In this document: positions 28,535 through 42,114 of the stretch, piece after piece | How the letters are laid out: each line of letters starts with the position of its first letter | Numbering within the stretch: position 1 is the first letter of the stretch | Source: an uncultured Pseudomonadales bacterium | GTDB lineage: Bacteria > Pseudomonadota > Gammaproteobacteria > Pseudomonadales > JAHEIH01 | DNA: 64,000 bases | Assembly: GCA_964598145.1 (NCBI GenBank) | Contig: CAZRAM010000002.1 | Coordinates: 403,795 to 467,794 of the forward strand | Reading direction: 5' to 3' | Made by a program: the position numbers and the translations under genes | The notes under the pieces: model-generated | What the model saw: only the letters and a program-made list of their open reading frames with translations | What the model was told of the DNA's origin: nothing | Database searches by the model: none

Positions 28535-30022
28535 TTATCCGGCACAGTGATCTGGCAGGGTCACCTCGAGGTCGGGCAGAGCGGTTTGCAATGTGCTAAT
28601 AGACGCGCAGTCGACACTGCCTGCACCGGTCAGAATTAAGCTGTCCAGCAAGGTCAAATCCGCCAGTGCAGAAACGTCGGTTACCGCGGTGTTGCTCAGG
28701 TCCAGCGTTTTCAGATTGGTGTTATTAGCCAACGTGCTCACGTCGGTGACGGCGCTGTTGGCGGCCTCCAAAATGGTCAAAATTCCAAGGTCTGTCAGGG
28801 CGCTTAAATCGCTGCTCGCTGTATTGCTTATTACCAATGTTTTCAACAGGCTAAGGCCAGCAATACCCGTCAAATCACTGACGTTGGCCCCGTCGATAGC
28901 GAGGTAGTTCAACGCCGACATGTCGGCCAGGGCTGTCAAGTCGCTCACCGGGTTGTTCGACAAGCCCAGGGTCACTAAGCTGGTGTTGCCAGCGATAGCG
29001 GTAATATCCGAAATATTGTTGTTGCTCAAGTTGAGCAGAAGCAACGAGGTGATGTCTTGCAGGGCGCTTATGTCGGCGATGCTGTTATCACCGAGCAGTA
29101 ATTGGCGCAGCGAAGCGAGTTGGCTCAACACGCTGAGGTCGGTCAACTGGTTGCCAATCAAGTCTAAATAGGTGATCTGGGTAAGTTCAGTCAGCGCGCT
29201 GATGTCGCTTACTGTGTTGTTGCGCAGGCTCAAACGCGTCAGGTCTACCAGGGTCGACAAGCTGCTAATATCGCTGATGGCGTTGCTGTCGGCATCAAGG
29301 TTAACAAGACTCACCAAACCGGCCAAAGGTGATACATCGCTAACGGTATTGTTGTTGAAACTAATCGCGCCCAATGCCGTTGCATCGGCGAGTGGACTGA
29401 GGTCGCTCACGCTGTTGTTGTCGAACGACAGGACCGCCAACACGGTTTTGCCGGCAAGGGCGCTAATGTCACTGACTTGGTTGTCCTTCATTTGTACGAT
29501 TTCGAGCAAACTTAAGTCTGCCAAGGGGCTAATATCGGTCAGGTCCAAACCATCGATATACAATGCACTTAGTTGTGTCATATTGGCCACGACTGAAATG
29601 TCGCTCACTTGGGTATTTTCGACATTCAAAAATTCCAGCGCCGTGAAACCACTTAACGCAGAAATGTCGCTGACAGGGTTGGCACCCAGGTGCAACGCTG
29701 TGATCTGCGTCATGCTGGTCAAGGGCGTGATATCGGTAATGCTGTTGTTTTCAACGTTGAGTGAGGTAAGACCGGTCAGCGTATCGATACCTTCTAGTGA
29801 GATAACGCCTTTATTATTACAGGTCAGGCTAGTGATATCGCTGATATTTTTGTATTGGTAAACGATGGCAATATTGGTCAGGCAGGTATTGAGTGCCTCG
29901 TCGCTAACGTCAAACACCAAGTCGGTGGTGGTGGGCAGCAAATAAGGGTTGGTGGCTTTGCCAGAACAGGCCGCGAGGACAGCAAACGTAGCGGCCAGAA
30001 CAGCTGAGCGAAATAGGGTCAT
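28535..30022 (-). CDS. leucine-rich-repeat (internalin-type) lipoprotein
   Basis: ORF trimmed to ATG 30022, giving MTLFRSAVLAATFAVLAAC (canonical lipobox LAAC). About 18 tandem 22-residue LRRs follow, with Cys-containing N- and C-terminal caps. Confidence 0.85.
   Translation of the reverse strand: MTLFRSAVLAATFAVLAACSGKATNPYLLPTTTDLVFDVSDEALNTCLTNIAIVYQYKNISDITSLTCNNKGVISLEGIDTLTGLTSLNVENNSITDITPLTSMTQITALHLGANPVSDISALSGFTALEFLNVENTQVSDISVVANMTQLSALYIDGLDLTDISPLADLSLLEIVQMKDNQVSDISALAGKTVLAVLSFDNNSVSDLSPLADATALGAISFNNNTVSDVSPLAGLVSLVNLDADSNAISDISSLSTLVDLTRLSLRNNTVSDISALTELTQITYLDLIGNQLTDLSVLSQLASLRQLLLGDNSIADISALQDITSLLLLNLSNNNISDITAIAGNTSLVTLGLSNNPVSDLTALADMSALNYLAIDGANVSDLTGIAGLSLLKTLVISNTASSDLSALTDLGILTILEAANSAVTDVSTLANNTNLKTLDLSNTAVTDVSALADLTLLDSLILTGAGSVDCASISTLQTALPDLEVTLPDHCAG
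28625..29836 (-). repeat. about 18 tandem 66-nt coding repeats (22-aa LRR units)
   Basis: Units such as LTSLNVENNSITDITPLTSMTQ / ITALHLGANPVSDISALSGFTA / LEFLNVENTQVSDISVVANMTQ and so on. The consensus is LxxLxLxxNxVSDISxLAxLTx. Confidence 0.85.
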
Positions 30023-30238
30023 GTGCATTTCCATGGGTCGATTGTGATCGAGAAGAAAGGCATTGTGCCGTGATTCTGCTCGAGAAAAAAGCCCTATTTT
30101 AGGCGCTGCGAGCTGGCCTAGCAACGTGCTAAAAAAACGATGCCTACGAATGCATAGCGCAATTCACCGGTGCAAGGTTCGCAGACGGTGGCAAAGCAGG
30201 TATTATCCGCTGATAAATAACACAATAGGGATACATGA

Positions 30239-33531: not shown

Positions 33532-36500
33532 ATGACCACGCGCGCTTATCCGACATATTATCTCGAAACGATTAGCTCTGAACAAAGTGCTGAAGCTTTC
33601 GCTGATCATATTTTGTCCCTACGCAGTTATCTGGTCCGAATTATGGTGACTTTTACCCTGTTTGTGACAGCATGGCGGATAAATAGTGGCTTAGCTCCCT
33701 ATGCAGCCACGATGGCCACATCCTGGTTCATTAATGTTTCTGCCGTAACGTGTCTTTTTGCTTCTTTTAGCTGGCCTTTTGGTCATCCCATGAAAAATCT
33801 ATACGTTCGCTATGGGTTTTGTCTGCTCTGGTTAGTTGCCTCCTTGATGTTAATAAGCAGTGCTGGCTATGCGCCGCTATGGACTTTTTGCGCGATTTTG
33901 TGTTGCCTAATTATTGTTGGTGATGACCCCGATCACCACCAAGCATGGCGACGCTGGTTTGGAACCTTACTCGCATTTGTTGCCATCATAATTGCTTTTG
34001 TCATCCTGGCGAACGATTGGCCAGTAGATAATCCAAAGATCTTTAACCGTTGGCAAATCGCTTTTGCGGCAATTGTTGCGGTGATCTCATACGCTTGGCA
34101 TGGCATTTTTTCAAATCAAAAGTTGCTACATAATGCCGCTGACCAATCGGCCCAATGGCATCAAATGGTGCTGAGGCTGAGAAAGCATTATGCGGCCTTC
34201 GATCCACTCTTTTTGATCTTGGTAGTTACTGTCCTCGTTTTCTCACTTTCTATCAGTTCACTCATTACGTCTCCTGAGCAATCGATTTTTGTCACCATGC
34301 TAACTCAACACAAGCCGTTTAGTGTGTTGCTCTTGGTTGTGTTTGTGGCAATATTCATAGCGGCGACACGAGAGCATTGGATGAAGGCAATTTCACCATG
34401 GGTGTTTGCGGCAAGCTTCGGCCTTGCTGGTTTTATGATTTTCAACGTTGGGGTAAATCAAAATGCAGGCAACTTCTTTGCTCCTATGGGATTTTTATAT
34501 TTCCTACAGCCAAACGCCTCCCGCCAGCGCTGGTTGGTGCCTGGGCTCTACGCGTGTTTGTTATTAGTCGCGCAGAGCAAACAATTTGATGAGTATTCCC
34601 TAGAGTTTTTGTTGATTTGCTGGAGCAGTTTTTTTGCCTTTGGCGCTGTTTTCGATCAGCTGAGAATGCAACACCTCAAGCAGCTAGCGGTGTTAGAACA
34701 CTTGGATGAAGGCGTCGACGATGCATCCATTCCGGCTGCTGACGTTGATAAGATTGATCAATGGATTTTGTCAAACAAGTGGCTTGGTATTACGTCGCTT
34801 GCGTGTGTCATCATCGCCTTTGCTATGTACAGCTCCCAGCAATCGCTTATCAATACCGAGATCGATGGGTTGCATGGGCTTGTTGAAAAAGAATTGGACT
34901 ATGAAATTCGCCGCCAAACCATGCAGTTAAATTTTTTGGCGAAAGATGATGACAACGATATGTTTGACGCGTTGACTCGCCAATCAGTGTGGTGTGCAGT
35001 TTGGCGGTCATCTGAGCCTTCGGGGGTGCCAGCAGTAAGCAATTGCCCATTGGATATTGTGTGGCTGCGACAATTGTTTGATGGTGATTTAAGCACTACA
35101 TTGCCGATTTTTTTTGTTAAGGACCATCGAGTCTATATGGTGCTGCGTTCAGACCTCGATGATGCCTTATCAGTCTATGGTGTGCTCGATGTGGCGGTTT
35201 GGATAAAAGCTGCTTTACACGTCTCTCTTTTTAATCGTCCTTTTCAAAAGCAATTACTGTTTGACGATGCCATATCCGATCTTCGCTGGTCGATAGATAT
35301 AGAAACCTTGCAATTGTCATCCCTTGCGCCGTCAGTTAATTTGGATTCCTCTTGGTCGGTGCAAATACGGCCAAGCGATGAAATCAGTTCTAACTTTTGG
35401 CTTGAAACGGGGCGTTTGCTGATTATTTTTTGTTTCTTCATTGCCGGCCTACGCCATTTTTATGTAAGTCGTTACAATGTTACGCGCCTGTCCACTGATG
35501 TTGCCCAGCAAGGGCGTCAGTTGGAAGAAAATAACCGACTTAGACAAGAAATCGCCGACGCACTCTACCGCGCTGAAGAGGCCAATAAGTCTAAGGATAA
35601 TTTTCTTGGCATGATCGGGCATGAAATTCGCACCCCTCTGAATAGTGTGATGGGTATGCTGCAAGCGTTGAACTTGAAACCCTTGTCCGAGGACGCTAAA
35701 CACTTAGTTAAAAATGCCTACAGTGCCTCCACAATGTTGCTCAATCTGGTCAATGACGTACTCGATTACAATAAAATGAAGTCGGGCACACTGACACTGG
35801 CTAAGCATACTTTTGCTCTGGGGCCTTTAATTGATTTGTATCATCAGCAGTACGCGACGGCGGCATCGCAAAAAGGCCTTAATTTTAAGTGTGACATCAT
35901 AGGTGATAGAGATGTTTTCGTACTAGGCGATGATATTCGGCTGGGTCAGGTACTGACCAATTTGCTGTCAAATGCCGTCAAGTTTACTGAGAGCGGTGGC
36001 ATTTTCCTGCATGTTGAAATCACTGTAGACGGCGATGACGTAACGTGTTTATTTAAAGTTATGGATACTGGTATCGGTATCGATCAGAAGTTCCTTCCCC
36101 TGGTGTTTGAACCGTTTAAACAATACGACATGAGCATGAAGCGTGAGTACCGCGGTTCAGGGCTAGGTTTGTCCATTGTTAAACATCTTGCAGAAATGAT
36201 GCATGGACACGTTGATGTGTTCTCGAGGGTGGGGCGAGGCAGTACGTTTGTCTTCAGGGTGACACTGGCGCGAGCGTTGGAACAGCCTTCTATCGCTTCC
36301 GCAAACGAGTTGGACGTTCAAGTCCCAAAAGCCATCTATAAGGGCAAGCGTATTTTGGTGGTCGATGATGATCCTCTTAACCTTGAGGTTATTAAGGAGT
36401 TATTAGAGCCATTTGGGGTGACGGTGGATTGTGCTCAAAACTCCCGCCAGTCGTTAGCTTTTGTTAAGCAACACGCGAGTGATTACCAATTTGTATTGAT

Positions 36501-36705
36501 GGACCACCAGATGCCCGATATGACTGGCTTGGAACAAACCTATCGCCTGAGAGAGACCTACGACAGCAATACGTTACCGATCATTTTGCTGACCGCTGAC
36601 TTGTCGGAAAAAGTCTTGGATCTAGCGGAAAAGGCGGGTACTAACGAGTCGGTATCCAAGCCCATCACCTTGTCTAATCTACGTCGCTTACTAGATACCT
36701 ATTAA
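33532..36705 (+). CDS. large polytopic hybrid sensor histidine kinase/response regulator
   Basis: 1057 aa. About 10 hydrophobic helices occupy the first ~400 aa, and a further ~190-aa segment is bracketed by two helices. H-box GHEIRTPLNSV (His codon 35620-35622), N box LLSNAVKFT, G1 DTGIGI, G2 GSGLGLSI and a receiver (ILVVDDDPLN...FVLMDHQMPDMTG...SKP). Confidence 0.85.
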   Translation: MTTRAYPTYYLETISSEQSAEAFADHILSLRSYLVRIMVTFTLFVTAWRINSGLAPYAATMATSWFINVSAVTCLFASFSWPFGHPMKNLYVRYGFCLLWLVASLMLISSAGYAPLWTFCAILCCLIIVGDDPDHHQAWRRWFGTLLAFVAIIIAFVILANDWPVDNPKIFNRWQIAFAAIVAVISYAWHGIFSNQKLLHNAADQSAQWHQMVLRLRKHYAAFDPLFLILVVTVLVFSLSISSLITSPEQSIFVTMLTQHKPFSVLLLVVFVAIFIAATREHWMKAISPWVFAASFGLAGFMIFNVGVNQNAGNFFAPMGFLYFLQPNASRQRWLVPGLYACLLLVAQSKQFDEYSLEFLLICWSSFFAFGAVFDQLRMQHLKQLAVLEHLDEGVDDASIPAADVDKIDQWILSNKWLGITSLACVIIAFAMYSSQQSLINTEIDGLHGLVEKELDYEIRRQTMQLNFLAKDDDNDMFDALTRQSVWCAVWRSSEPSGVPAVSNCPLDIVWLRQLFDGDLSTTLPIFFVKDHRVYMVLRSDLDDALSVYGVLDVAVWIKAALHVSLFNRPFQKQLLFDDAISDLRWSIDIETLQLSSLAPSVNLDSSWSVQIRPSDEISSNFWLETGRLLIIFCFFIAGLRHFYVSRYNVTRLSTDVAQQGRQLEENNRLRQEIADALYRAEEANKSKDNFLGMIGHEIRTPLNSVMGMLQALNLKPLSEDAKHLVKNAYSASTMLLNLVNDVLDYNKMKSGTLTLAKHTFALGPLIDLYHQQYATAASQKGLNFKCDIIGDRDVFVLGDDIRLGQVLTNLLSNAVKFTESGGIFLHVEITVDGDDVTCLFKVMDTGIGIDQKFLPLVFEPFKQYDMSMKREYRGSGLGLSIVKHLAEMMHGHVDVFSRVGRGSTFVFRVTLARALEQPSIASANELDVQVPKAIYKGKRILVVDDDPLNLEVIKELLEPFGVTVDCAQNSRQSLAFVKQHASDYQFVLMDHQMPDMTGLEQTYRLRETYDSNTLPIILLTADLSEKVLDLAEKAGTNESVSKPITLSNLRRLLDTY

Positions 36706-36708
36706 GGG

Positions 36709-37062
36709 TTATTTACTCGCCGCCAGCAGCGATTCAAATGCACCGCCGTTGGTGACCGCGGTGTACCCCGCGTTTTGCAAGGTGGCGGTGGCTTGCCCGG
36801 AGCGGTTGCCGCTGCGGCAATACAACACCATCGGCGTGTCTTTGGGGATACCCAAGGCTTTTACGCCCTCTAAAATGTTGCTGTGGGTGATGCGCGTTGA
36901 GCCTTCGAGATGGCCCTCGCGGTACTCGGCCTCGCTGCGGACATCGATTAACATGGCGCCATCGGCGACCTTTTGCAGCGCTGCAATATGACTATCGTTA
37001 AAACTTTTGCCGCAACCGAACAGGCTCATCATCATAACACCTACCAAGGCTAGTCGTTTCAT
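36709..37062 (-). CDS. rhodanese-domain protein, probable periplasmic lipoprotein (PspE-like sulfurtransferase)
   Basis: ORF trimmed to ATG 37062 (MKRLALVGVMMMSLFGC, lipobox-like), with GGAG upstream. Single rhodanese domain with the active-site loop CRSGNRS. Confidence 0.8.
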   Translation of the reverse strand: MKRLALVGVMMMSLFGCGKSFNDSHIAALQKVADGAMLIDVRSEAEYREGHLEGSTRITHSNILEGVKALGIPKDTPMVLYCRSGNRSGQATATLQNAGYTAVTNGGAFESLLAASK

Positions 37063-37144
37063 CGGATCTCCGTGAGTATTTTTTTGTTGTGAGTTCATTG
37101 TACACTCAGCATGAAGATTAATCTTTGCTAATACAGGTCAATTT

Positions 37145-37573
37145 ATGTTTTTTGTTTCCGCGGCGTTGATCGGCATCATCGCTGTCATTCCCGCCATCAT
37201 GTGGGCGCGTCACCAACGCACTGCAGTGCTGGTAAAAGTCGCTGGATGGGGATTGATTGCCGCGGCATCTATCTATGTCATCGCGGCCTTGGGTCGTGCC
37301 GACGGGTTGTGGAAAATCATCGAGTTGATGGGGGTGGGGGCTTTTGGTTGTTGTTATTGGCTCGCCAAAAAACGTCCGCTGTGGGCATTGGCCTGGGGTT
37401 GGGGTTTGCATCCCCTGTGGGATATTTTTCTGCACTACCTTGGCCCCGGTAGCTACATCATACCGGCCTGGTACAGCATCGCTTGCGCGGTGTTTGACGT
37501 GGTCGTGGCAGCGTATTTATTTTGGCGCGACTATCAACAGCGTCACCCCGTCGAAATCGTGCGCCTTTGGTAA
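37145..37573 (+). CDS. hypothetical 4-TM membrane protein
   Basis: 142 aa with four clear hydrophobic helices and a Trp-rich loop (LWALAWGWGLHPLWD). No family recognised. The 3' end overlaps the convergent DUF2063 gene by 31 nt. Confidence 0.5.
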   Translation: MFFVSAALIGIIAVIPAIMWARHQRTAVLVKVAGWGLIAAASIYVIAALGRADGLWKIIELMGVGAFGCCYWLAKKRPLWALAWGWGLHPLWDIFLHYLGPGSYIIPAWYSIACAVFDVVVAAYLFWRDYQQRHPVEIVRLW

Positions 37574-38298
37574 CCCAACACGATCTGATCTTTGTGTAGT
37601 TGTGCCAAAATACTTTCAACGTGGGGCCAAAGACTGGCGGCATCGGTATTGGGTAAGCGCTCACAAAGTGATTGGCAGGCGGCTGCCACCGACGGGTTGC
37701 GTTGAAGATCTTGCAAGAGTTGTAAGGTGGTGGCATTGATTGCATTGAAAGCCACCTCGTGTGAGGCTTTGCGATACACCGCAACACCAAACCATTCTCC
37801 TGTCGTTGCTGGAATGTCTGCACCGGGGCTGAACTGGTGCACAGGTCTAGGGTAGAGCCCAAAGTGCACCGTGGGGTTCAAAATCACGTCAATTTGATCT
37901 TGGTCCTGTTCGTCTAGCGGCTCGCTTTCACGTAAAACCACCTCGCCGGTATGTTGATAGGCCGCCAACTCCAGCCATTCGTAGTGCATTAAATCGTGCA
38001 ACCATTCAGGGACATCATCGCGCTCTGCTATCCAGTCTAGAAAGATCTCAGGAATGTCTTTAAACAGCGGCGAGTGGTGTTCTCCCGCGGCAAAAAATGC
38101 CCTACACAGGGTATTCCATTTCTCTTCACCGAGAATGGCTGACGCTATTGGAAAGCACTGGTCGATGAAACTAGTCAGGTTGTTGTATACCAGGCGGCGA
38201 TACACTTGGAAACGTGATTCGGCCACGCCATGTGGCGCCTCGCTGTTGTTTCTTAGCGCGGCGGCGATGTCGCGCTGATAGTCAGTTAAATGAGTCAT
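37543..38298 (-). CDS. DUF2063-family protein (BufC/HvfC-type RiPP maturation partner)
   Basis: 251 aa. The N-terminal pattern (QRDIAAALRN...RFQVYRRLVYNNLTSFIDQCFP) recalls DUF2063. Its ATG overlaps the DUF692 stop (ATGA at 38295-38298). Confidence 0.75.
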   Translation of the reverse strand: MTHLTDYQRDIAAALRNNSEAPHGVAESRFQVYRRLVYNNLTSFIDQCFPIASAILGEEKWNTLCRAFFAAGEHHSPLFKDIPEIFLDWIAERDDVPEWLHDLMHYEWLELAAYQHTGEVVLRESEPLDEQDQDQIDVILNPTVHFGLYPRPVHQFSPGADIPATTGEWFGVAVYRKASHEVAFNAINATTLQLLQDLQRNPSVAAACQSLCERLPNTDAASLWPHVESILAQLHKDQIVLGYQRRTISTG

Positions 38299-39140
38299 GG
38301 TGCCAGCTTGGCTGTCTTTGCCGTGACCTGCTGCTGCAGATGCTTGATGTATTGAATCTCGGGCAGTAATTCAGCCAGCGGTGGAATGTTAAAGTCTCGC
38401 TCCAAGAGTGTGGGGAAGATACCAAACTGCTGGTAGCTGAAGTCGAGAAGTCGCCATACCTCATCAACCACCTCGGCGCCATGGGTGTCGATGACTAAAT
38501 CCTCTGCCTCACGGAAGTGACCAGCGGTATGCATGTAGACTATCCGTTCAGTGGGTAATGCTTGTAAGTACTGGTAGGGATCAAAGCCAAAGTTCACGCT
38601 GTTAACGAAAACGTTATTGATATCGAGGTGTAAGTCACAGTCGGCGGTTTCAAGAACTGCGCGAATAAAGCTCGCTTCATCCATGCTGGAGTGGGGGGCG
38701 GCCATGTAAAACGACGTGTTTTCCAAGGCGATGCGCCGTCCAAGGATGTGTTGCACACGTTGCACTCGCTGGGCGACATGTTCCACCGCCTGCTCGGTAA
38801 AGGGCAGCGGCAATAAGTCGTATAGGTGGCCGTTAGCGCTACACCAAGACAGGTGCTCACTGTAAAGGGCGATGTGGTGTTTATCTAAAAAGCGAGCGAT
38901 ATCTTCAGCGAAGGCTTCATCGAGCGGATCACTACTGCCAATCGATAGTGACAAGCCATGGGCGACAAAGGGGCGTTGTTGCAGTAGCGCGTGTAGTTGC
39001 TGTCGCTTGCGGCCGCCGTGCGCCATCCAATTTTCAGGGGCAATTTCTAAAAAGTCGATGGCGTCCGGGACGCCATCGTCGATGAGGGTGGCGAGGTGCT
39101 CCTGACGAAGTCCCAAGCCACTGCCCATTGGGTAGGTCAT
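38295..39140 (-). CDS. DUF692-family multinuclear non-heme iron oxidase (MNIO; MbnB/BufB/HvfB-like RiPP maturase)
   Basis: 281 aa. The blocks GLGLRQEHL...DFLEIAPENW...HGLSLSIGS...YSEHLSW...ALENTSFY...HLDINNVFVNSVNFG...YMHTAGH are the TIM-barrel DUF692 pattern. It starts 3 nt after the precursor stop. Confidence 0.88.
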   Translation of the reverse strand: MTYPMGSGLGLRQEHLATLIDDGVPDAIDFLEIAPENWMAHGGRKRQQLHALLQQRPFVAHGLSLSIGSSDPLDEAFAEDIARFLDKHHIALYSEHLSWCSANGHLYDLLPLPFTEQAVEHVAQRVQRVQHILGRRIALENTSFYMAAPHSSMDEASFIRAVLETADCDLHLDINNVFVNSVNFGFDPYQYLQALPTERIVYMHTAGHFREAEDLVIDTHGAEVVDEVWRLLDFSYQQFGIFPTLLERDFNIPPLAELLPEIQYIKHLQQQVTAKTAKLAP

Positions 39141-39143
39141 GGT

Positions 39144-39533
39144 TTAACCCATGCCGCCGCACTTACCTTCACCGCATTTGCCGTCTTTGGCTTTCTTGGA
39201 GTCTTTTGCACCGCACTTGCCATCGTTGCCCTTCATCGAGCCGCCGCACGAGCCGTCATGGGCTTTATCGTGGCCTTTGTGGTTACCGTGGTCATGGTTG
39301 TGATCATGGTTCATATCATGGCCATCTTTCTTGTCTTTGGCGCCCCCGCACATGCCCTCACCACATTTGCCGTCTTTGGCTTTGGGCTTGTCTTTGTCGC
39401 CGTGGTGCATGGCGACTTGATAGCCCTGTTCCATACTGGTGGCACTGAACGGACTGGTGTCAGCGCTGACGTGCATGGCGGTATTGCCCATGGCAGCAGC
39501 GATGGCGATACTGAGTGTCATTGATTTTTTCAT
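39144..39533 (-). CDS. secreted Cys/His/Lys/Gly-rich precursor peptide (HvfA/bufferin-type RiPP metallophore candidate)
   Basis: Start taken at the second ATG (39533), 7 nt after GGAG; ATG 39539 is the alternative. Sec signal MKKSMTLSIAIAAAMGNTAMHVSA. The core has six G-x-C-G sites, including two DGKCGEG(K/M)CGG blocks, and a 22-aa tract with 8 His. Confidence 0.8.
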   Translation of the reverse strand: MKKSMTLSIAIAAAMGNTAMHVSADTSPFSATSMEQGYQVAMHHGDKDKPKAKDGKCGEGMCGGAKDKKDGHDMNHDHNHDHGNHKGHDKAHDGSCGGSMKGNDGKCGAKDSKKAKDGKCGEGKCGGMG

Positions 39534-39658
39534 CGTCATTCTCCGTGATTTGATGTCAAAATATTATAGAACATTGCACAGATGCATATATCTCTTTGGA
39601 TTTTCTATAGTCCAGTCATGGGCCTACGGCGTAAAAAAATAAAAATACAAGGTGCGCT

Positions 39659-39973
39659 ATGGCGAGTAAACTTCTATACGACGATTTATTAAAAAAGGGC
39701 TCGGTACCCCGCATGGTGGTGGAGTCTTACGATTTGTGTCTCTACCAGTGCTTTGCTGACCTCGGGGAGGGCGAGCGGCTGGTATGGCAAACGCCTACTA
39801 AGACGCTGACCACCCACAACCTCACCGCGATGCGCGAAAAACTCGCCAAATTGAAACCCGCCGAGGTGTTTCTGCGTCAGTCGAGTGCCTTCGATGAGAT
39901 GATCGGGCAGCCGAACAAGACAGACAGCAATGCCTTGCTGCTTCCGCTATCGTTGGACTCTATTTTTTTCTAA
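39659..39973 (+). CDS. hypothetical protein (104 aa)
   Basis: Single clean ORF divergent from the precursor gene. No recognisable motif. Confidence 0.45.
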   Translation: MASKLLYDDLLKKGSVPRMVVESYDLCLYQCFADLGEGERLVWQTPTKTLTTHNLTAMREKLAKLKPAEVFLRQSSAFDEMIGQPNKTDSNALLLPLSLDSIFF

Positions 39974-40670
39974 CAGGACGGCGCGCAACTAATGTTTGGT
40001 ACAGCAGCATCACACCGGTCAACGTGAATAGCAAAGCACTGGCGGCAAAGGCAACGAGCAACGGGTGATTGAAATCATCGCGTTCATCGTAATCCATGAT
40101 GTGCAGCATCCAGACAAAATCGAAGAGCCGCCATATATCGCTGCGCACCCGTTGCAGTTCTCCACTGATGGGATGCAGGTAAAACGAGGTGTTGTCCTTG
40201 TCCGCAAAATCTACCCGCCACATGGGGGGACGCAATGGTCTGGCCTCCATGGGAAGTTCCTGTAATAACTCGGCGCTTGTAATGTCGGCTGTTTGAGTAA
40301 ACAAGCTGCGTGCAGTATCTGTGATGTATTGCTTATCCAAGGCGGGCATTGGCTGGCCGCTAACAGCGGAAAAGTAGCTCACCTGATCAGTGACTATCTT
40401 GTACACCGGTTCGTTACCCACGCTAATAAAGGCGACCTGCTTGGCGTTTAGCCCGTGCTCGACGAGTAACGCATTGAGTGGGTAGCGATAATCGGCTATG
40501 GCTAATTGCAGTGACTGGGGGTGGCGCAAGTGATCGCCGTGCACTTCGTCGATATCGAGGCTGGCCATGATGGTGCCGCCGCCAATCCAAAAGAGCAACT
40601 GCAGGCTCAACGCTAGGCCTGCCCATTTGTGCAGCCAGCGGTTCCATCGGTAGTAGGTTATCCAGTTCAT
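39960..40670 (-). CDS. PepSY-associated TM-helix protein
   Basis: 236 aa. The N-terminal YRWNRWLHKWAGLALSLQLLFWIGGG and a C-terminal TM helix bracketing a periplasmic domain are typical of PepSY-TM proteins. Confidence 0.65.
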   Translation of the reverse strand: MNWITYYRWNRWLHKWAGLALSLQLLFWIGGGTIMASLDIDEVHGDHLRHPQSLQLAIADYRYPLNALLVEHGLNAKQVAFISVGNEPVYKIVTDQVSYFSAVSGQPMPALDKQYITDTARSLFTQTADITSAELLQELPMEARPLRPPMWRVDFADKDNTSFYLHPISGELQRVRSDIWRLFDFVWMLHIMDYDERDDFNHPLLVAFAASALLFTLTGVMLLYQTLVARRPVRKK

Positions 40671-40773
40671 CTTGTTGTGCTCGGGTTGAATACGGTCGCG
40701 CCCGCCGAGACGACTTGACGGTTACATCGTGTCAGGTCACATTGTGGCCATCATAATAACAATGGAGACGGCA

Positions 40774-42114
40774 ATGGCCTATCTTGGATTGCTTTTTGGC
40801 TTGATTCTACTCATTTACTTGGCCCTACGTGGCGTCAGTATCGTACTTGCCGCGGTACTGTGTTCTCTGGTGGTGATCGTTACTAACGGTTTGCCGCTGG
40901 CGGATAGCCTGATGCAAGGGTTTGCGCTCGGCAAGTTGGGTGCATTTACCTTTGCCGGCAAGTTCTTTTTGTTGTTTGCCTGCGGTGCCATTTTTGGCCG
41001 CGTGATGGGCGACAGCATGGCGGCTACCAGCATCGCCATGGCCATGGTCAATGCCTGGGGCCGCGATAAAGTGTTATGGATTACGACGCTTGCCTGTGCC
41101 TTACTCACCTACGGTGGTGTAGTGGTATTCGTGGTGATTTTTGCCATTTATCCACTAGGCCTGCGTTTGTTGCAAGAGGCCAATATTCCTAAACGTTTGT
41201 TTACCGGCGCGGTGGCGCTGGGCGCGGGCACCTTTACCATGACCGCCTTGCCAGGAACGCCCTCTATCCACAATGTTATCGGTTCGGTAGGTTTTGGCAC
41301 TGACCTTTATGCAGGTTCCCTGTTGGGGTTCATCGGCAGTGCCATCATGCTGGGTGGCGGTATGTTTTATTTAGAGCGCGAGCGTCGCCTGGCGGAGGCG
41401 AGAGGCGAAGTGTTTGAGCCTAGTCCTAACGATCGCATCGTCGACATTAACGACACCCATTTACCATCTTGGGTAGCATCACTATTTCCGATTGTGGTGG
41501 TACTAGGCACCATTTTGCTGCCACGTTTGATGAGTGAGGGCGGCGGTGCGATGATGGACTTTGCCCGCAGTCAGCCCATTTTGTGGCCCTGTTTCGCGCT
41601 GATTTTGGGTAGTGTAGTGGCCTTGATGATGTTTGCCGGCGTTCGCCAGCGTGCCTTTGAGGTGATGAGCCAAGGCACCCAGGAATCCATCATGCCTCTG
41701 ATTAGCACGGCCGCGGTGATTGGTTTTGGCGGTGTTGTCACCCAGACGACAGGGTTTCAGTCGTTTATTGCCACTATGGCGGGTCTCGATCTGCCGCCAC
41801 TTATTAAATTGTTTACCTCTGTCAGTTTGATCTCGGGTATCACGGGTTCTGCGACGGGTGGATTGCAGATCTTCATGCAAACCATGGCGGCGACCTATAT
41901 CGAAACTGGGATTGCGCCTGAGGTGTTGCACCGTATCGCGGTGATGGCGAGCGGTGGTCTCGATTCACTGCCGCACTGCGGTGCCGTGATAGCCATGTTA
42001 ACCATCACTGGCATGACCCATCGGCAAGCCTATCGCGACGTGGCAGTAGTCACTATTGTGATTCCCATTGTCGCCACCCTAGTTAGTATTGGACTGGTGC
42101 CCATCTTGTATTAA
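40774..42114 (+). CDS. GntP-family (gluconate/organic anion:H+) permease
   Basis: ORF trimmed to ATG 40774, 7 nt after GGAG. 446-aa polytopic protein with GntP-like N-terminal and central helices. Confidence 0.7.
   Translation: MAYLGLLFGLILLIYLALRGVSIVLAAVLCSLVVIVTNGLPLADSLMQGFALGKLGAFTFAGKFFLLFACGAIFGRVMGDSMAATSIAMAMVNAWGRDKVLWITTLACALLTYGGVVVFVVIFAIYPLGLRLLQEANIPKRLFTGAVALGAGTFTMTALPGTPSIHNVIGSVGFGTDLYAGSLLGFIGSAIMLGGGMFYLERERRLAEARGEVFEPSPNDRIVDINDTHLPSWVASLFPIVVVLGTILLPRLMSEGGGAMMDFARSQPILWPCFALILGSVVALMMFAGVRQRAFEVMSQGTQESIMPLISTAAVIGFGGVVTQTTGFQSFIATMAGLDLPPLIKLFTSVSLISGITGSATGGLQIFMQTMAATYIETGIAPEVLHRIAVMASGGLDSLPHCGAVIAMLTITGMTHRQAYRDVAVVTIVIPIVATLVSIGLVPILY

Follow-up and report, generated by a model that had tools for sequence, protein, structure and literature searches.

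On the minus strand of the 64,000-nt stretch analysed here (the window, from an uncultured Pseudomonadales bacterium), the gene hvfA (39144-39533) encodes a 129-residue precursor of the HvfA family, in the Lys-Cys (EGKCG) group of the captophorins, which are ribosomally synthesised peptides with post-translational modifications (RiPPs). We consider it highly probable that hvfA is a Sec-exported captophorin precursor heading a minimal hvfABC operon; a His-rich tract between its cysteine modules would most likely add auxiliary metal sites. This tract is the only non-standard feature of the precursor, and in all else the locus conforms to a system already described. The name captophorins now covers oxazolin, fontiphorin, gonophorin, bulbicupramide and the bufferins, for which RefSeq contains more than 20,000 clusters (PMC13097082), and the group is among the most abundant predicted RiPP classes. 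Its physiological role is still debated, with copper detoxification, acquisition or other functions under discussion.

In the oxazolin system, HvfBC modifies six cysteines in three AEGKCGEGKCG motifs of HvfA, and the product, which loses a Sec signal peptide of 24 residues, takes up roughly one Cu(I) ion for every two modified residues (PMC11252979). The cysteine modification has since been reassigned from an oxazolone/thioamide to a 5-thiooxazole (10.64898/2026.06.05.730506; PMC13097082; 10.64898/2026.07.17.739211), whose hallmarks are a change of -4 Da per cysteine and absorbance at 302-305 nm; the heterocycle/thioamide ligands invoked in a preliminary description of this locus are superseded by that reassignment. 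The papers cited here demonstrate that the modified peptide binds Cu(I) in the case of oxazolin, fontiphorin, bulbicupramide and bufferins.

The hvfABC operon

The preliminary description had taken the precursor for a substrate of an MNIO enzyme, and this is borne out by the HvfA-family model and by the two genes directly downstream, whose products score above curated cut-offs. The precursor, which carries two KCGEGxCG doubles and two single xGxCG sites, passes NCBIfam model NF050137 ("KCGExKCG_twice", the HvfA family) with 34.8 bits against a cut-off of 19.5. Three nucleotides past the hvfA stop codon starts hvfB (38295-39140, minus strand), encoding an MNIO (DUF692) maturase that passes NF003818 (401.9 bits, cut-off 360) and matches Pfam PF05114 at 5e-104. 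A 4-nt ATGA overlap joins hvfB to hvfC (37543-38298, minus strand), which encodes a DUF2063/NGO1945_C partner with a RiPP recognition element (RRE), passing NF050145 (207.2 bits, cut-off 142) and matching PF09836 and PF22106. The closest solved structures to HvfB and HvfC are PDB 3bww (243 bits) and PDB 3dee (47.6 bits), both cited as part of the HvfB/HvfC system (PMC13097082). Judged by these matches, the locus is a compact hvfA-hvfB-hvfC operon of the HvfA family, a described RiPP class. [quoted passage not shown]

With FonB, an enzyme studied biochemically, HvfB has 56% identity; it shares with that active enzyme the invariant H/H/E/D/N/H/D/H/E pattern, and keeps D249/F250, the Asp249/Phe250 pair being named for Lys-Cys-type enzymes (PMC13097082); the HvfB of a related locus, L002, has Ala at the Phe250 equivalent. 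These residues bear on the possibility that the product stays unmodified, either as a metallothionein-like Cys/His peptide or with cysteines that form disulfides only. Unmodified HvfA does bind two to three Cu(I) in vitro and forms disulfides (PMC11252979), but hvfB and hvfC are intact in the window, tightly coupled to hvfA and above the curated cut-offs, HvfB retains the residues invariant with active FonB (Asp249 among them), and hvfABC synteny is conserved at all loci of the window's clade. We regard an unmodified product as very improbable.

Several observations weigh against reading hvfA as a captophorin precursor of this kind. The strict HvfA equivalog model NF050188 (H. influenzae oxazolin) is failed at 42.2 bits against a cut-off of 95, and no cysteine lies ahead of the first module, so that the N-terminal Cys pair of H. 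influenzae HvfA is absent; for these two reasons the precursor is a family member and not an orthologue of oxazolin itself. A tblastn search across the window with the DoxX (HvfX) of sister locus L085 returned no DoxX gene (best E 0.09). At two sister loci, L001 (4129-5635) and L085/L086 (4481-5998 and 583-1388), doxX (divergent in this set), an extracytoplasmic function (ECF) sigma factor gene and a gene for an 84-residue HxxxCxxC anti-sigma factor stand directly upstream of hvfA; doxX and the ECF sigma/anti-sigma pair are absent from the window, L081-L083, L084 and L002. The accessory DoxX is frequent in the family yet not required, so its absence does not exclude membership, and it is dispensable for modification in bufferins (PMC11626156). 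In HvfB, Gln13 replaces the equivalent of FonB Arg16: residues 12-13 are Arg12-Gln13 in the window and its two closest relatives, against Arg15-Arg16 in FonB, a pair that is said to clamp Glu1 of EGKCG and is conserved in Lys-Cys-type enzymes (PMC13097082). In the window and in the same two relatives, the first residue of the motif is Asp in most cases. Finally, a sigma-70 consensus scan upstream of hvfA found no promoter-like match, and AlphaFold2, run on the precursor with a 62-sequence alignment, gave no secondary structure and was uninformative (mean predicted local distance difference test score, pLDDT, 47.7).

The preliminary description had started the open reading frame (ORF) at an ATG at 39539 (39144-39539, minus strand) and numbered residues from there. 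The start is almost certainly the ATG at 39533 (MKKS...), because a Shine-Dalgarno GGAG (39541-39544, minus strand) lies 7 nt 5' of ATG 39533 and 1 nt from ATG 39539, because the upstream in-frame ATG is absent from the L084 and L002 hvfA orthologues, and because MKKS is the start chosen by gene callers. The Shine-Dalgarno block CACGGAGAA is the sole upstream block conserved across all four aligned clade loci, and an Rfam scan of 36000-41000 (E up to 0.1) found no match. Translation from 39533 opens with a predicted Sec signal peptide, MKKSMTLSIAIAAAMGNTAMHVSA (39462-39533, minus strand), in which inspection reveals a basic n-region (MKK) ahead of a 12-residue hydrophobic core and, after this, a small-x-small site, VSA followed by D. 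In an alignment it coincides with the signal peptides of 62 family members, and the predicted cleavage after VSA agrees in position with the 24-residue signal peptide cleaved in H. influenzae HvfA (PMC11252979). The mature peptide is predicted to have 105 residues and a mass of 10.9 kDa.

Beyond the signal peptide lies an N-terminal core segment, SPFSATSMEQGYQVA (39411-39455, minus strand), with the family motif NPF...L..GYQVA followed by an HH pair. In the 62-member alignment its columns are near-invariant at P28 (58/62), F29 (61/62), G37 and Y38 (62/62 each) and A41 (57/62), and we infer that the SPF/NPF...GYQVA segment is the region recognised by HvfC. The HH pair had already been placed after the signal peptide, and it is indeed there (residues 45-46 from ATG 39539); it recurs in the family, with His at the two positions in 13/62 and 22/62 members. 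An antisense ORF of 142 residues (39096-39524, plus strand) was rejected as a shadow of the low-complexity, GGC/AAA-rich hvfA, the family model, the homologues and the operon all being on the minus strand.

Inside the 5' end of hvfB, 66-88 nt past the hvfA stop, a hairpin with a 10-bp G+C-rich stem (CGATGGCGTC-CCG-GACGCCATCG, then ACTTTTTAGA; 39056-39078, minus strand) is present in all five clade orthologues as a stem followed by a run of 5-7 T, with folding free energies (dG) of -12.7 to -17.8. It shows no compensatory changes and only one G-U pair, and the same sequence encodes the conserved DGVPDAIDF[FL]E. The hairpin and its T-run could attenuate transcription such that the precursor message exceeds the enzyme message.

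By homology with the characterised systems, HvfC would bind the precursor in the cytoplasm, where the iron enzyme HvfB would oxidise the cysteines of its [DE]G[KMS]CG pentamers to 5-thiooxazoles. The modified peptide would then be exported by Sec and lose its 24-residue signal peptide after VSA, and the product of about 105 residues, periplasmic or secreted, would chelate Cu(I) at about one ion per thiooxazole pair, for up to three ions.

The cysteine modules

All six cysteines of the precursor (Cys57, Cys62, Cys96, Cys107, Cys120 and Cys125) lie within the family pentamer [DE]G[KMS]CG. Their positions in the earlier numbering (59, 64, 98, 109, 122 and 127) and their contexts (GKCG, GMCG, GSCG, GKCG, GKCG and GKCG) had been described correctly. 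Two copies of KAKDGKCGEG[MK]CGG had also been reported around the His tract; both are present, the first at residues 53-66 of that numbering as given and the second at 116-129, the reported 117 being off by one. Two single-Cys modules also belong to the architecture: a double module comes first, followed by the His tract, then by the single-Cys modules, and last by a second double module. Double module 1, KAKDGKCGEGMCGG (39342-39383, minus strand; Cys57 and Cys62), is conserved in 6/6 clade members. The single-Cys modules DGSCGG and DGKCGA (39207-39254, minus strand; Cys96 and Cys107), 11 residues apart, are of a type, DG[KNS]CG[AG], that is common among other family members. Double module 2, KAKDGKCGEGKCGG (39153-39194, minus strand; Cys120 and Cys125), lies within the best-scoring NF050137 stretch (residues 106-129 from ATG 39539).

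The substrate rules established for FonBC indicate which of these sites could be modified. FonBC tolerates Ala, Arg and Thr before the cysteine but only small residues behind it, and modification of DGKCG variants is complete (PMC13097082). Because these rules admit them, the GSCG and DGKCG sites of the window are plausible substrates for a FonBC-type enzyme. On the other side, GMCG is outside the tested FonBC substrate set (PMC13097082) and isolated single-repeat peptides are left unmodified by FonBC, which makes modification of Cys62, Cys96 and Cys107 uncertain.

The two double modules share an identical 20-mer, CATTTGCCGTCTTTGGCTTT, which encodes KAKDGKC and, as reported earlier, occurs exactly twice on the plus strand, the copies at 39175 and 39364 being separated by 189 nt. 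By arithmetic, 64 kb should contain about 0.002 exact repeats of a 20-mer, and the match is not a matter of chance. The preliminary description had read it as an in-frame duplication showing that the core grows by module addition. The exact match and its spacing speak for a recent duplication or gene conversion with modules still being added, as does the probability of about 0.007 that six codons would match through the codon usage of the window alone. Over their full length, however, the modules are alike at 37/42 nt, with nine identical codons, four synonymous changes and one non-synonymous change among 14 codons, and such differences between paralogues equal or exceed those between orthologues from different genomes; a window module is no nearer its own paralogue than the paralogue of another genome. 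The codons of the 20-mer are themselves largely conserved among orthologues, the module start AAAGCCAAAGA is kept in all of them, the family model itself is named KCGExKCG_twice, and the C-terminal module has been lost in two clade lineages. Since synonymous-site divergence matches that of the orthologues, the repeat, on these counts, is old and conserved at the protein level, and nothing points to a recent duplication or to gene conversion. The synonymous-site counts led us to reject a recent origin, which we consider highly improbable.

A survey of homologues places the repeat in the wider family. A full-length homologue search returned 552 proteins and an exhaustive search of representatives 231, from which 266 distinct sequences were retrieved; in addition, precursor-like ORFs were recovered by motif near HvfB in 80 loci from other species, 58 of which yielded 63 such ORFs. 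Most of the 266 proteins have two to four copies of KAKDGKCGEGKCG, the commonest Cys count being six and the range 2-12, one spurious 1,020-residue match aside. The 63 ORFs have 4-14 Cys, and relatives contain two to seven double modules. That module number varies among homologous precursors, a point put forward earlier as a check, holds and is already published: Microbulbifer precursors have Cys counts of 5-8 (PMC12538549), and precursor lengths span 31-506 residues, with Cys counts reaching 58 (PMC12452194). From this distribution the repeated KAKDGKCGEGxCGG module is the defining repeat of the family and its ancestral unit, and not a local innovation. In the window's clade, the trend is towards loss of modules and not addition: two of the six closest relatives (P0004 and L002/P0005) retain only one Cys of the C-terminal double module.

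The His/Asp-rich tract

Between double module 1 and the single-Cys modules lies the His/Asp-rich tract HDMNHDHNHDHGNHKGHDKAHD (39255-39320, minus strand; residues 74-95 from ATG 39539), which has 8 His in 22 residues, as first described. At the His frequency of the window (2.2%), at least 8 His per 22 residues has a probability of about 1.5e-8 per position and is not a matter of chance. The tract is rich in HD, contains one Met only, and includes a 12-nt tandem repeat (NHDH twice) found by Tandem Repeats Finder (TRF). Linkers are generally variable across the family and are normally K/A/E/D-rich. At a threshold of at least 5 His per 22 residues, a His tract was found in 5/266 retrieved family proteins (P0001-P0005), all from the window's own clade and collapsing to one 50%-identity cluster, and in 2/63 precursor-like ORFs near HvfB, those of L001 (a Cellvibrionales metagenome-assembled genome, MAG) and L002 (a Pseudomonadales MAG), where HvfB has 86% and 75% identity, respectively, to the window protein. 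A second protein search, with the segment from module 1 through the His tract to the next module, gave 59 candidates and missed the 94%-identical P0001, and therefore says nothing on tract frequency. Weaker His enrichment occurs elsewhere, in L062, L019/L021 and P0206.

Within the clade, all six members (66-94% protein identity) keep module 1, and all have a His-rich tract in the same position. The window and P0001 share an 11-residue insertion, AKDKKDGHDMN, and have 10 and 11 His in total, each with a maximum of 8 per 22 residues and 6 Cys. P0002 and P0003 lack the insertion and have 7 His (maximum 5 per 22) and 6 Cys. P0004 carries a different insertion, 10 His (maximum 8 per 22) and 5 Cys, and L002/P0005 has 17-18 His (maximum 6 per 22) and 4 Cys, with MDHSHGQGM-like repeats. 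The best-kept part of the tract is its C-terminal end, where H-[DE]-K-[AT]-H-[DE]-G-x-C-G is largely conserved. The expansions use only ligand-type residues (His, Met and Asp), those of L002/P0005 being His/Met/Asp/Gly repeats. The question raised earlier, whether the tract is conserved or drifts across homologues, is answered in two parts: it is kept in 6/6 clade members, and it varies in length and is absent elsewhere in the family. The word "histidine" is absent from the texts of PMC12452194, PMC12668002 and PMC12538549 and occurs once in PMC11626156. The His-rich linker is real, confined to one clade and not found described in the captophorin literature searched; it is a lineage-specific elaboration of the linker in a small group of uncultured Cellvibrionales/Pseudomonadales-like gammaproteobacteria.

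Variation in tract length, the slippage-type 12-nt repeat and absence from the rest of the family tell against a metal-binding function, and are also the picture expected of neutral linker drift. The tract might then be functionally neutral, a linker of low complexity that replication slippage carried towards His/Asp within a disordered peptide, leaving an ordinary three-site captophorin. This would fit the length and sequence differences among the six clade members (the 11-residue indel and the separate version in P0004), the 12-nt unit present twice, the absence of the tract from the other retrieved proteins and from 61/63 precursor-like ORFs, the general variability of family linkers, and the lack of structure in the AlphaFold model. 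Against it stand the presence of a His-rich tract at the same place in 6/6 clade members down to 66% protein identity, the largely conserved C-terminal H-[DE]-K-[AT]-H-[DE]-G, and expansions that always draw on metal-ligand residues. A comparison of close strains points the same way. The window and metagenome contig L081 are 98.97% identical over 12.4 kb and so belong to the same species, and the central 260 nt of hvfA (module 1, the His tract and the single-Cys modules) shows 1 difference against 22 in the two ends. We take neutral drift seriously as an explanation and consider it the less probable one.

The same strain comparison showed hvfA to be the most divergent stretch between the window and L081, with 23 differences in 390 nt, of which 17 fall in the signal-peptide/N-terminal region (39426-39516) and five are synonymous third-position changes in the last module (39147-39165). 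The first approximately 200 nt of hvfB are likewise enriched in differences, which suggests patches of allelic recombination.

Being clade-specific, kept in 6/6 members and His/Asp/Met-flavoured, the tract favours a metal-related role, and from its sequence an extra metal-binding role is plausible. For such a role also speak a His enrichment far above what composition predicts, the near-invariance of the centre of the gene between the two strains, and the likeness of the expanded L002/P0005 version to the Met/His/Asp-rich motifs of periplasmic CopA (PMC3847284). To go by its composition, the tract would most likely supply auxiliary, modification-independent sites for Cu(II), Zn or Ni. HD/HxH-rich periplasmic tracts of this kind resemble the His-rich loop of ZnuA and the Ni-binding proteins Hpn and HypB. 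The tract could on this likeness serve a metal other than copper (Zn, Ni or Co), which would make the product a dual-metal buffer or delivery chaperone and not a higher-capacity copper binder; some bufferin clusters are tied to other metals, for example mercury (PMC12452194). Set against this, the whole 64-kb window contains no gene for taking up or exporting Zn or Ni, and the expanded relative has MDH-type repeats, which are more typical of copper proteins (PMC3847284). We judge a dedicated tract for another metal to be quite unlikely.

The clade also lends itself to a bolder proposal, in which the RiPP scaffold would be shifting from thiooxazole ligands to encoded His/Met/Asp ligands and the window tract would act as a Cu(II)/Zn capture antenna, handing metal to the thiooxazole Cu(I) sites or widening the metal range. 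It is prompted by the series from P0002/P0003 (6 Cys, 7 His) through the window and P0001 (6 Cys, 10 and 11 His) to L002/P0005 (4 Cys, 17-18 His), and we offer it as speculative and on balance unlikely.

The precursor of L002 (5554-5997), about the same as P0005, carries MDHSHGQGM and MDQNHGHGM repeats. We take these to resemble the octapeptide DHS(Q/K)MQGM of Pseudomonas syringae CopA/CopB, a literature search on which gave no paper. Periplasmic Met/His/Asp-rich motifs of CopA bind many Cu ions (PMC3847284). Upstream of an HvfB homologue, at a distance of about 600 nt, L019 (2581-3042) and L021 (1160-1633) encode distant candidate precursors whose 7 Cys sit in G[SA]CG contexts and whose linkers are rich in Met and His (8 His, e.g. 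AMMKGHDGACGMSGMSDMKHDD); from their sequences they look like another independent drift towards Met/His ligands.

If the window tract does act as such an antenna, the product would be a genuine composite metallophore, undescribed for captophorins. A natural variant with both thiooxazole modules and a His tract, together with relatives that trade one for the other, is a ready-made comparison set that could show the share of each ligand type in metal capacity, oxidation-state preference and selectivity.

Genomic setting and comparison with known systems

The window shares with L081-L084 a gene order of Y-family polymerase, hybrid histidine kinase, rhodanese, DUF6010-like membrane ORF and hvfCBA, continuing past hvfCBA with DUF6482, PepSY_TM-like and GntP genes. 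Loci with the doxX/ECF regulator set have a shorter His tract (5 per 22) than loci without it (6-8 per 22, 10-18 in total), a link that, with six loci only, may be coincidence. In the window, the membrane ORF (37145-37573, plus strand; 142 residues, multi-pass) matches DUF6010 weakly (26.7 bits, cut-off 27.3), runs convergently to hvfC with a 31-nt overlap at the 3' end of that gene, and is syntenic in L081-L084; DoxX, the usual companion of hvf operons, is a small membrane protein of similar size. The rhodanese-domain protein (36709-37098, minus strand), with a lipoprotein-like signal (LFGC), is encoded downstream of the operon in every clade locus. Its gene is probably not co-transcribed with hvfABC, given the convergent ORF between it and hvfC. 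We rejected the idea that the locus sits in a metal-resistance island, the window genes being concerned with housekeeping and polysaccharide use (dnaK/dnaJ, dapB, glycerol kinase, GH13, GH31 and a TonB receptor among them). In this context of a free-living polysaccharide degrader, 28535-30124 (minus strand) encodes a 529-residue protein made almost wholly of leucine-rich repeats (LRR_4, 1.7e-45).

Among known systems, oxazolin (HvfA/B/C of nontypeable Haemophilus influenzae; PMC11252979) likewise has a Sec signal peptide, six Cys in xGKCG repeats that include KCGEGKCG doubles, and MNIO and DUF2063 partner genes immediately downstream, and the window HvfB and HvfC pass the same NCBIfam family models. 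It differs in its N-terminal Cys38-Cys43 disulfide pair, absent from the window precursor, and in its middle double module, replaced here by two single-Cys modules; conversely, the window has the 22-residue His/Asp tract and lacks a DoxX (hvfX) gene. Fontiphorin (FonA/FonBC of Fontimonas thermophila; PMC13097082; locus L072) shares the EGKCG-type Lys-Cys precursor, R12 of the window HvfB is the equivalent of FonB Arg15, and all six window sites fit the substrate rules measured with FonBC. FonA, however, has seven sites and no His tract, FonB has Arg16 where the window has Gln13, and motif position 1 is mostly Asp in the window.

Bulbicupramide (MmrA of Microbulbifer; PMC12538549) resembles the window system in that its EGKCG precursor, of three cassettes, is accompanied by mmrB/mmrC but by no other dedicated genes, and in its module-number plasticity, with 5-8 Cys in close relatives. 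It differs in being described with a leader/core arrangement, and no His-rich linker is reported for it (PMC12538549). A second metal-binding element beside EGKCG motifs is also found in the Buf_EGKCG|EF-hand_5 precursors (PMC12452194; P0035 and P0096), and the EF-hands within these EGKCG polypeptides indicate that the scaffold accepts inserted metal-binding modules. There the inserted element is a folded Ca-binding EF-hand pair and not a low-complexity His tract. In P0035 and P0096 the EF-hand pair (PF13405/PF13499) lies between EGKCG modules, whereas the published Buf_EGKC|EF-hand_5 type has EF-hands C-terminal to a short EGKCG domain, not flanked by modules (PMC12452194).

More distant likenesses are those to the copper proteins and to methanobactin. 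The motifs of P. syringae CopA, PcoA and CueO (PMC3847284) are also periplasmic low-complexity His/Met/Asp repeats, a likeness in composition only, and they occur within multicopper oxidases or outer-membrane proteins, not in RiPP precursors. Methanobactin (MbnA/MbnBC) shares the conversion of Cys by an MNIO into an N,S-chelating heterocycle for Cu(I), but is a small secreted chalkophore with oxazolone/thioamide groups, a leader peptide rather than a Sec signal, and dedicated transport genes.

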